A stretch of DNA of 64,000 bases, taken from contig CM059432.1 in NCBI GenBank assembly GCA_030390025.1, positions 98,644,001-98,708,000 on the forward strand. Reading direction: 5' to 3'. Positions 1 to 3,037 of this stretch are shown here, piece after piece (positions within the stretch are counted from its first letter, which is position 1; every line of letters begins with the position of its first letter). This DNA comes from Squalus acanthias (taxonomy: Eukaryota). The notes under the pieces were generated by a model, which was not told the origin of the DNA, did no database searches, and worked only from the letters and a program-made list of their open reading frames with translations. The translations under genes were made by a program, and so were the position numbers.

Positions 1-368
1 TGGCGTAACTCATGTAAACTCTTAATGAGCGCCTCCCCTCCAGAAACCTTCTCCTCCATTTCCTCCTCTAACTGCTTGATTCGAGCGGTTAGCGCTGTAT
101 TGGTCTGGTTTGAAATCTGAACCTGCCTTTTGTAGCACATAAGCCAGACTGCTTTCTCAACTGCCTTTTTATGCTCCTTACTATCAGTCCACCTTTCAGC
201 TGCCTCTAGTGGGCTCTTATCCGCTAACAATTCGCTTATCCACTTTTTCGTTAGATTAACCTTTCCAAATACGTAATCCGCTATCTTTTCCTGCATCACA
301 TTTCGTACAGTCATTCCAAAATCTAACACACTACCCTCTCGCTGCCAGTGTCCTGCCGCGGTCGCCAT
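1..368 (-). CDS. N-terminus of a gag-like ORF of an LTR retroelement/ERV (partial, runs off the left edge)
   Basis: Hand translation from ATG at 368 gives 122 stop-free codons to the edge (MATAAGHWQREGSVLDFGMTVRNVMQEKIADYVFGKVNLTKKWISELL...LTARIKQLEEEMEEKVSGGEALIKSLHELR). It lies directly downstream of the LTR and overlaps the PBS. The gag call is positional; the ORF is absent from the track because no stop is in the window. Confidence 0.7.
   Translation of the reverse strand, partial: MATAAGHWQREGSVLDFGMTVRNVMQEKIADYVFGKVNLTKKWISELLADKSPLEAAERWTDSKEHKKAVEKAVWLMCYKRQVQISNQTNTALTARIKQLEEEMEEKVSGGEALIKSLHELR
350..367 (-). promoter_or_regulatory. Primer-binding site complementary to tRNA-Arg(TCG)
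   Basis: Minus strand reads TGGCGACCGCGGCAGGAC, the complement of the 3' 18 nt (GTCCTGCCGCGGTCG+CCA) of vertebrate tRNA-Arg-TCG as recalled; 5 nt after the LTR terminal CA. Confidence 0.85.
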
Positions 369-372
369 TTTC

Positions 373-1968
373 TGTAAGGGATTCTCTCCTGACCCTGCGT
401 GTCTCGTAGCCTGTGAGATTCACGCGGCTCTGTGCAGCCTGTATGTCAGTGCGGGTCTAGGCCTGGTCTCCAGCCAGTCTGGGAACACTAGACACCCCTG
501 TGAGTGGTTCGAATCACTCTCCCTTACGGTTCTAGACACTGGACTTAGATGCGAGAGCAGTAATGGAGATAAAACTCATGTAGACTTGGTTTGAACGGTA
601 CGAAATGGAAAATCTTTATTGCATGATACTTAAAATTATGAAATACATGTCATATGCACAGATTAATGACAGTACAATCTTACAAACAGTTATAATCACT
701 CTTAGGGAAACGAGGAACGACCAGCACAACGTAAATAGGGCACACATTACAAATATCCTTAATCTTTAAACCCTCCCCTATCAATGTCTATCCTAAACTA
801 GCTTCGTAGGATCTCGAGACTCATGCTCACCACTCGTAATAACTCGGAGAAATCCCGAATAGCTGATCGGATGTTTTTCACCGCAGCACCCACGTGTTGG
901 TCAGGAGATCTCCTGGTCCCACTTGTTTACTGCTTTTGCTGCTCGGTCAGTCAGCTGGACCGTCCGCTGTAGTGAAGACCTCTGTTGGTTGGATACAAGG
1001 TATGGTGGAGCACCGTTGTCAATATCGCTGATACGATGTGTTTGCACAGTCCAGTTATCATCGATGCAATATGTCTTGTTAAAGAAGAAAACTTCCTGTC
1101 GAGAAGACTTGGCTGATCGACCTACAGGCGCGGTCGGGATTTACTGACCGTGGCGATGGATAAGGTCTTCTTCTCTTCTCCTCTCATCTCATCTCATCTC
1201 ATCTCATCCCGGGCCTTCGGTTCCGCTGCCAGCTACCAACATAGGTCTTTGCAACAGTCTTTTACACAGGAGCAGCCACGATGATAACAGCAACAAGCGG
1301 CAAGAGTCAAGAACACGAGGCAAGAGTCAAGAGCAAGAGAGAGAATGGACGGTTTGGGGCCTGCAATTATAGTGCACAGTTCTTCCGTTTCCCGCCCAAC
1401 TACAATGTCCATTCTTTTGTTTAAGGTTTGGCGCCCAAAATGTCCTGTATGGGTGATCTCTGTCCTTAATGGGTTTCGGGGCTACTCCTGAATGTTTGAG
1501 TACCTGCTAATATTTCTCCCATTGTTAAATCGGTCGGTGTTCCCCCTGGAGGGGTTTGGGGCTTCCAAGTGTCCTGTATAACTACCTGCTAACGGCTCTC
1601 TCATCGTAGAGCCGTTGGGAGTTTACATATTAATGTCCTTTGGATGGGCCTTTGATGGCTTTCCTTTGTACCTGGGAGACCGATTCCAGTATCGATGTTT
1701 ATACTGTAAACCCATAATGTCCTGTGTATTGTCTTCACTGTGCTGAATCGTTATCGATCCTGCAAAAAAAAAAATGTTTATTGGAACGCCATCTTGTCTG
1801 CCTGTTGAAAAGTCTAGAATGTTCTGTCACGCGGTGCGGCGGCCATTTTACAGGCTGCTTGTGTCCAATTTAAACCTGACAGCATTCCGCTGAAATAAAA
1901 GCTGTTTTGAACGAAACTTTGTGTTTTCTCCTTATTAAAATGAAATCGCGATAATTGCGAATTCTACA
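373..1968 (-). mobile_element. 5' LTR (~1.6 kb) of an LTR retroelement
   Basis: Minus strand starts TGTAGAATTCGC and ends CCCTTACA (TG..CA). Colinear with 9619-11812. GC box 1391-1397, TATAA 1367-1371, AATAAA 615-620, (ATCTC)n at ~1183-1209. Followed by a PBS. Confidence 0.9.
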
Positions 1969-3037
1969 CCTCCTCGTCCTCTTCCTCCTCTTCCTCCTCC
2001 TCCTCTGGTGGTGCTCCAAGGCCTGGTGGCATTGGCTGGGTCCTGAGGATTGCCATGTTATGCAACATGCAGCACACGACTACGAAGTTCGATACTCGCT
2101 CAGGCGAGTACTGCAGGGCTCCTCCAGAATGGTCGAGACAGTGGAACCGTTGCTTCAGCACGCCGATTGTGCGCTCAATTATGTTCCTGGTAGCTTGATG
2201 GCTCTCATTGTACCGCAGCTCAGCAGGGGTGTTGGGCTTACGGAGCGGTGTCATCAGCCAGGTGCTCAATGCATACCCCTTGTCCCCGAGAAGCCAACCA
2301 ACTGGCTGATGCGGTGCCTCGAAAAGTTCTGCCACAGTAGTCTGGCGCAGGATAAAAGCATCGTGACAGCTGCCAGGACAGTGGGCATTGACAGCGAGTA
2401 TCAGCTGTCTGTGGTCACAGACCAACTGAACATTCAAGGAATGGAACCCCTTTCTGTTCCGGAATTCCTCGGCATTCTCATGCGGAGCACGCAAAGCCAC
2501 ATGCGTGCAGTCAATGGCGCCCTGCACCATGGGGAAGCCCGCTACCCTCGCAAAGCCCAGAGCGCGGTCACGCTGCTTGTCTGGGGTCATGGGGAAAGAG
2601 ATGAACTCTCGTCTCCTTTTAAAGAGGGCATTTGTGACCTGCCGGATGCAGCAATGCACCGCGAACTGGGAGATATTGGCGAGGTCCCCAGCAGCAGCTT
2701 GAAATGAGCCAGTAGCGTAAAAGTTGAGAGCCACTGTGACCTTCACTGCCACCGACACAGACGTCCTGGACCTCAGTTGAGGCTGCAGATCTGGCTGCAG
2801 CAGGTGGCAGAGCTCAGTGACCACCTCCTTGCTGAATCGCAGCCTTCGCAAACACAGCTCCTCAGACATATGGATGTAGGAGAGCTGTTCACGATATACA
2901 CTGGGAGGGTAAGCTCTCCTGTACATACGCCTGTTGGCCCTCCTCCGTCTGGCCATCATTGCCACTCTCTCTCTGCGTCTCTGTATCCTCCGATTCAGCT
3001 GGAGCAGGACGACGCCCCCAATCAGTGCAGCCCCCAT
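1964..3037 (-). CDS. PIF/Harbinger (HARBI1-like) DDE transposase, open frame, C-terminal tail truncated by the LTR
   Basis: 357 aa from ATG 3037 (the track's longer ORF uses a non-ATG start). HTH-like LRFSKEVVTELCHLL, catalytic motifs GAIDCTH, LLGDKGY and RNIIERTIGVLK, NRKGFHSLNVQLVCD, acidic tail. The stop TAG (1966-1964) lies inside the LTR. Confidence 0.92.
   Translation of the reverse strand: MGAALIGGVVLLQLNRRIQRRRERVAMMARRRRANRRMYRRAYPPSVYREQLSYIHMSEELCLRRLRFSKEVVTELCHLLQPDLQPQLRSRTSVSVAVKVTVALNFYATGSFQAAAGDLANISQFAVHCCIRQVTNALFKRRREFISFPMTPDKQRDRALGFARVAGFPMVQGAIDCTHVALRAPHENAEEFRNRKGFHSLNVQLVCDHRQLILAVNAHCPGSCHDAFILRQTTVAELFEAPHQPVGWLLGDKGYALSTWLMTPLRKPNTPAELRYNESHQATRNIIERTIGVLKQRFHCLDHSGGALQYSPERVSNFVVVCCMLHNMAILRTQPMPPGLGAPPEEEEEEEEEDEEV

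Follow-up and report, generated by a model that had tools for sequence, protein, structure and literature searches.

A young endogenous retrovirus of Squalus acanthias, likely related to snakehead retrovirus, with a putative gag start on its tRNA-Arg primer binding site

The provirus and its insertion site

The window analysed here is the whole stretch of 64,000 nucleotides of Squalus acanthias DNA (GenBank contig CM059432.1, positions 98,644,001 to 98,708,000), and it carries on its minus strand the 5' end of an endogenous retrovirus (ERV), the remainder of which lies to the left. The 5' LTR occupies positions 373..1968 (1,596 nt, TG at 1968 and CA at 373), and both its ends are fixed by comparison with the 3' LTR (G000:C8:98633438-98635032; 1,595 nt), located 10.9 kb to the left; from LTR to LTR the whole provirus measures 12,531 bp (G000:C8:98633438-98645968). 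The initial annotation, made from the letters alone, had described a TG..CA LTR of about 1.6 kb, which is thus borne out, and had proposed leftward extension as a check. The added sequence yielded gag, pol, env and the 3' LTR, with the gag frame going on beyond the window and pol following it. A spacer of 5 nt (368..372, minus strand) lies between the LTR end and the primer binding site (PBS; 350..367, minus strand), and its final A is the A of an ATG (368-366) that opens 122 stop-free codons up to the window edge (3..368, minus strand) and, as the annotation had it, overlaps the PBS; the frame runs on into a full gag of 603 aa. Outside the window, a pol frame of 1,487 aa (C8:98642556-98638093) is in phase with gag and an env of 783 aa (C8:98637808-98635457) is likewise open, so that three long open frames lie between near-identical LTRs. 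With a short purine tract between env and the 3' LTR, as expected of the polypurine tract (PPT) of an ERV, and a 4-bp target site duplication (TSD) GAGG (1969..1972, minus strand) repeated beyond the 3' LTR, the LTR-gag-pol-env-LTR layout of the Retroviridae is present in full. Between env and the 3' LTR no ORF reaches 80 aa.

Between the two LTRs there is one substitution and one indel in a homopolymer. The single change gives an age of 0.6-1.4 My with two published shark rates, 2.2e-10 (PMC4422223) and 0.5e-9, and the provirus is about 1 My old or younger. The early view of a recent and possibly intact element is upheld by this near-identity, by the three open frames, by the TSD and by thousands of junctions in the genome. 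LTR length among copies varies from 1,459 to 1,626 nt.

The provirus splits a Harbinger transposon consisting of a DDE nuclease ORF (1964..3037, minus strand; DDE_Tnp_4, E=1.8e-39), which is not part of the element, and a Myb/SANT ORF (L002:6167-8047). The 3' end of the nuclease is broken by the insertion, and its frame now stops at a TAG inside the LTR.

Within the LTR, a TATA-like box (1367..1372) with an initiator-like pyrimidine tract ~25 nt downstream places a predicted R start near 1346, and an AATAAA (615..620) is predicted to act as poly(A) signal close to the boundary of R and U5 (all minus strand). If these motifs function as their sequences suggest, R would be ~750 nt and U5 ~225 nt long, giving an R-U5 leader of ~970 nt with 13 upstream ATGs, so that splicing, shunting or internal entry would be needed. 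The annotation had seen essentially no leader before the ORF; this stands for the DNA, where no untranslated sequence separates the PBS from the ORF, but is probably wrong for the mRNA, which is probably not leaderless. A Cys-rich hydrophobic ORF of 59 codons also lies within the LTR (1233-1412, minus strand), across the TATA-like box, and has no Pfam match.

Primer binding site and the start of gag

The PBS is exactly complementary (18/18) to the 3'-terminal 15 nt, with CCA added, of a host tRNA-Arg(TCG) gene, in agreement with the perfect tRNA-Arg(TCG) match reported initially 5 nt past the LTR; such a match is expected by chance at ~2e-6 (one tRNA end, this window). It doubles as gag codons 1-7. 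Two Arg(TCG) primers were found with very unequal gene numbers, 424 exact matches and 1 match (L077 = G000:C24:44794443; G000:C26:38.9-42.2 Mb), and many of the 424 tRNA-Arg(TCG) matches sit in tandem arrays with a period of ~1,623 bp.

As any CCA-ending primer yields TGG at the PBS, a single A in the spacer suffices for an ATG, and of the first 100 junctions in the list, 98 carry the ATG formed by the A preceding the PBS. Junctions with a variant spacer were examined further, 20 of 21 having been fetched. In 18 of these 20 loci the PBS ATG shares the gag frame and precedes a second Met (codon 25; 294..296, minus strand) by exactly 24 codons; the spacer measures 3, 4 or 5 nt, and the stretch between the ATG and the second Met is free of indels. 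The frame is open to codon 25 in 15 of the 18 and carries a stop before it in three, which counts against use of the PBS ATG. One subfamily differs at 14-15 of the 18 codons between the PBS and the second Met, yet keeps frame and distance. Gly at codon 18 is retained in all 18 ATG-bearing loci and Trp at codon 8 in 17 of them, while the two loci without a PBS ATG have a closed frame and an ATG of their own 10 codons before the second Met. Gag translation probably starts at the PBS ATG, because the latter keeps the gag frame even in diverged subfamilies.

Alternatively, Gag begins at codon 25 in a retrovirus that is otherwise the same, and the PBS ATG is a by-product that serves as a minor start or not at all. 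The ease with which a single spacer A creates an ATG is consistent with this, as is the conservation of the codon-25 Met in every subfamily examined, including both loci lacking the PBS ATG; constraint is also weaker upstream (~4 synonymous vs 5 replacement changes in codons 7-24) than downstream (~14 vs 6 in codons 25-60). The constant frame and 24-codon distance in 18/18 loci, which include the strongly diverged subfamily, the retained Gly and Trp residues and the substitute upstream ATG of the ATG-less family argue against it, and we consider a start at codon 25 somewhat unlikely. In a diverged subfamily (L069, L070) CTG replaces ATG at the PBS and gag has its own ATG ~40 nt downstream.

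Gag, Pol and their junction

Gag comprises a coiled-coil region, a capsid-like core and one CCHC knuckle at residue 521. The coiled-coil-like part noticed initially shows a heptad pattern over residues 85-122 (p=0.016 against shuffles), and the pattern beyond residue 122 is weaker (p=0.03, 0.05 and 0.16). Gag has no match in Pfam, and the Atlas groups it with retrotransposon/Ty3-type capsid proteins (score 0.93).

The gag frame ends on an in-frame UGA followed by CUAG, and pol continues in the phase of gag, with its own in-frame ATG 23 codons past the UGA. UGA-CUAG is a known leaky stop context (PMC13517186) and is common to the full class of copies, the pol-less class and an older neighbouring provirus, all described below. 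No stable RNA structure and no readthrough hairpin was found after the gag stop (z 0.6 to -1.6), which, like the separate ATG of pol, speaks against readthrough. Pol has the order PR-RT-tether-RNase H-IN, for which Pfam reports PR, RT, two RNase H and IN; the catalytic motifs are present, YVDD being that of RT, and ~280 low-complexity residues form a C-terminal tail.

Envelope

Env carries a signal peptide, an RQRR site and a C-terminal hydrophobic helix and lacks CX6CC, and a pyrimidine-rich acceptor-like site lies directly 5' of its ATG. Among named homologues the nearest (62-79%) come from a skate and a sawshark, with remoter ones (19-32%) in other sharks and in frogs. These homologues, a RAG1 gene made of a single ORF of 1,016 codons and a genome of 3.7 Gb point to a likely cartilaginous-fish host; in an uncontrolled comparison, two exons of a cadherin gene match a sawshark protein at 54-60%. 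Sequence searches with Env gave no PDB match and no match to PF00523, and 31 aligned members yielded no Pfam family of informative value. A structure model of moderate confidence (pLDDT 61) matches F proteins from paramyxoviruses and pneumoviruses (best E=6.5e-12), and among viral models it matches lispivirus F, baculovirus F, walleye virus Env and foamy Env. Env is thus predicted to be of the F type, folding like paramyxovirus fusion proteins. Together with the published occurrence of F-type Env in several deep lineages (PMC11468914, PMC7947760), the model matches suggest that such an Env is common to several of them.

An Ig-like head on Env is possible. An Ig-like domain at residues ~85-170 has a Pfam Ig_3 score that is not significant (E=0.011) and weak PDB matches that are nearly all to Ig; the model of this region (pLDDT 48) has no fold match at E<=0.001, its top rows being mostly Ig domains. 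Pieces of the Env family are fused with Niban- and cadherin-like genes in two sawshark gene models (P0122, P0123), which probably reflects annotation read-through.

Phylogenetic placement

A careful tree was built from 75 rows hand-picked from ~170 Pol matches, with P0015 as SnRV (matched by eye with Dataset S2 in PMC7947760), P0016 and P0026 as Loki-type (by supplement motifs), and named foamy and Gypsy rows; the AU test was performed on 30 rows with a simpler model. The provirus RT falls within the Retroviridae clade (100/98 with 75 rows, 100/99 with 30) and, in the 75-row tree, outside the Loki-type (100/99), foamy (100/99), class I and Gypsy rows. There it lies in an unresolved basal grade, and SnRV belongs to a 47-row clade (96/85) that excludes it; the short separating branch (0.09) is lost with 30 rows. 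The AU test rejects a clade with Loki (p=0.002) but neither the grade together with SnRV (p=0.31) nor a foamy grouping (p=0.097). The best match in the RT region is an 88% relative, followed by frog and coelacanth ERVs; among named rows, coelacanth and frog ERVs are nearest (~50-52% RT identity), SnRV stands at 43.5% and Loki-type rows at 35-38%. Ty3/Gypsy (Metaviridae) is ruled out by the position in the RT tree and by the dual RNase H. Of the leads offered initially, SnRV thus proved the right neighbourhood, while Gypsy is excluded, Loki rejected and foamy without support.

We take the primer of CmiERV lineage I to be of the Ser type. This lineage of the elephant shark clusters with SnRV and was dated at 75 My, with decayed copies (Han 2015, PMC4422223); the SnRV-related group has been named Huo (PMC6001957). 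Like the provirus it has a cartilaginous-fish host, and by eye the two agree in RT signature, in having a Gag of the coiled-coil type and in a UGA where gag passes into pol. As judged by eye from the published material, it differs in having an LTR of ~0.8 kb, a leader of several hundred nt and a gamma-type Env with CX6CC, whereas the provirus combines a 1.6-kb LTR, an Arg primer, a PBS ATG, a predicted F-type Env without CX6CC and an age of ~1 My. The initial annotation could place the element in no known family and had allowed for a described family of the same layout. The shared RT signature points to a family after all, while a strict grouping with SnRV was indeed not recovered, and CmiERV lineage I is not such a same-layout family because it differs in primer, leader and Env type.

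SnRV, like the provirus, is primed by tRNA-Arg. The two further share a coiled-coil Gag without Gly2, a single zinc finger and an in-frame stop before pol, and SnRV Gag is joined to Pol by stop suppression (PMC2717909). SnRV has a 518-bp LTR, non-coding sequence from PBS to gag and a 3' ORF (PMC12193657), and a UAG stop (PMC13517186); the provirus differs in its 1,596-nt LTR, the missing gap between PBS and gag, its UGA and the 280-aa low-complexity Pol tail. As neither this LTR, gap and stop nor a 3' ORF was found, the element is not SnRV itself. It works like an SnRV-type retrovirus, and the RT trees neither recover nor reject its grouping with SnRV. We regard it as a likely member of an early-branching, SnRV-related group of the CmiERV lineage I type.

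A different proposal is a separate, earlier branch of the Retroviridae that lies outside foamy viruses, SnRV and class I/III and is not SnRV-related. The position outside the 96/85 clade of SnRV, foamy and class I rows speaks for such a branch, as does the combination of two Loki-like traits, an F-type Env and a long LTR. The shortness of the separating branch, its loss in the 30-row tree and the AU value for the grade with SnRV weigh against it, as do published trees that place CmiERV lineage I with SnRV (PMC4422223) and the composition of our RT trees, which contain no class II, WDSV or CmiERV rows; we judge it unlikely.

Lokiretroviruses share with the provirus the gag-pol-env order, the tether and RNase H, an F-like Env (here a predicted fold), a long LTR and a multi-nt spacer before the PBS (PMC7947760); by eye, Loki-Bsp has a different primer and a long leader (PMC7947760, Wang and Han). 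The dual RNase H, the long LTR and the F-like Env with an RXRR site would fit a lokiretrovirus, which would be the first in a cartilaginous fish, the published Loki survey giving 0/6 chondrichthyan genomes with Loki (PMC7947760). The RT is, however, much closer to its own group (~52%) than to Loki-type rows, a shared clade is rejected by the AU test, and an F-type Env is also found in foamy and walleye viruses; this assignment is very improbable, and at most Env could share a Loki origin. The long LTRs that the initial remark linked to foamy-like viruses are not confined to them, as the Loki-Bsp consensus LTR is also ~1.8 kb by eye (PMC7947760 supplement). A long LTR, YVDD and an F-related Env fold are common to foamy viruses and the provirus (PMC11468914), which differs in an RT outside the foamy clade, a CCHC knuckle, a pol in frame behind the gag stop and an Arg primer.

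Foamy viruses use a Lys primer and have a Gag without a zinc knuckle. The knuckle at 521 and the Arg PBS accordingly speak against a foamy-like ERV. A separate foamy-like ERV family is present in the host (L054, G000:C3278:441626-445117, and 48 other places), and its RT groups with mammalian foamy viruses.

Copies, the pol-less class and spread

The exact LTR-end/PBS pattern, which includes sister subfamilies, occurs 3,375 times in the genome (control 0), and identity is 100% in each of the 40 top-scoring matches to the U5-gag junction. Two classes of copies are distinguished by LTR spacing, a few copies being tandem; exact junction patterns number 691 for the pol-type and 823 for the pol-less copies, and the pol-less 9-kb class is at least as common as the full class. 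Three of the six long copies scored have gag, pol and env all open (seven were fetched, L042 being left out). In each of the seven short copies (8.9-9.3 kb) gag is complete and the segment from PR to IN is missing, and env is complete in six; behind the gag stop all seven retain an open frame that combines a coiled-coil-like insert with the Pol tail. This ORF matches no Atlas family, and the insert shows a modest likeness to the Gag coiled coil (5/500 and 1/500 shuffles score as high). The LTR pairs of the short copies are 0-3 substitutions apart.

Passive spread by the surrounding Harbinger, by segmental duplication or as an assembly artefact could in principle account for such numbers in place of retroviral replication, since this copy sits within a Harbinger element and some copies are tandem. 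It is refuted by the distinct TSDs, each of the seven short copies having its own of 4 bp. Furthermore, 17 of 30 LTR-start loci are 5' or solo ends whose flanks all differ, and the provirus sequence is present in 14 public runs, so that passive spread can be practically dismissed. A target preference for Harbinger or GAG repeats was likewise rejected, the flanks being unrelated.

The public runs (7 studies, 6 organism codes) contain 45-68% of the sampled words, and contigs from them cover all bins of the provirus, the longest pieces listed being ~92-100% identical. No RNA data set was among those listed as containing the sequence, and no GT-AG joint appeared in the contigs, which is uninformative about splicing. 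Presence in several organisms may reflect spread between species or inheritance among close relatives.

Proposed mode of replication and its significance

Taken together, these data are best read as a young 12.5-kb ERV, likely SnRV-related, with open gag, pol and env, whose Gag likely starts on the tRNA-Arg primer site and whose Pol is likely made by UGA readthrough, a reading to which we assign a probability of about 0.72. Under it, transcription driven by U3 would pass through the long R, and Gag would initiate at the PBS ATG. An annealed primer would cover the gag start codon, and could thereby separate translated RNAs from those being reverse transcribed. Gag-Pol would arise at the leaky UGA-CUAG; Env would come from a spliced RNA, be cut at RQRR and mediate fusion by an F-type mechanism, possibly with an Ig-like head. 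The pol-less class would take its enzymes from the full class.

A bolder version, in which a still-active, earliest-branching Retroviridae lineage with an ancestral F-type Env and Ig-like head has recently moved among several cartilaginous-fish species together with a pol-less satellite, and in which primer annealing over the gag start codon is a built-in switch between translation and packaging, we consider quite improbable.

The points that stand out are the youth and copy number of the family, an F-type Env on an SnRV-type backbone, a gag start overlapping the PBS and a pol-less satellite. Each single ingredient has precedent somewhere; the combination was not found in print in the open-access literature. 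No description of PBS-initiated gag, of this family or of its combination of features was found in that literature, which covered, in the portions available, for example PMC10699275, PMC12440569, PMC9040795, 10.64898/2026.05.06.723177 and 10.1101/2023.10.26.564294, with subscription journals and Repbase outside its scope. Among the genomes screened in a published survey of invading retroviruses were 13 from cartilaginous fishes, and its list of 37 host orders includes no chondrichthyan one (PMC10435555). Those cartilaginous-fish representatives of this RT group that have been described are ancient, degraded sequences (CmiERV-I, 75 My), whereas a young family with open frames and thousands of copies makes the biology of the deepest retroviral branches readable from natural sequence. 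It bears on the position of F-type Env in retroviral history, on UGA readthrough and on whether a start codon beneath the primer couples priming to translation.

Neighbouring sequences

About 8 kb left of the 3' LTR, in the same orientation, lies an older provirus that lacks pol and belongs to a sister subfamily (L002:501-3960, L047, G000:C8), with a PBS that fits a second tRNA-Arg(TCG) gene. Compared with the young provirus, its LTR is ~79%, its Gag 70% and its Env 93% identical; the higher value for Env suggests that envelopes were exchanged or are under strong constraint. Elsewhere in the window (3000-64000), the long frames resemble decayed pieces of LINE-type RT along with dispersed repeats, the family names being provisional.
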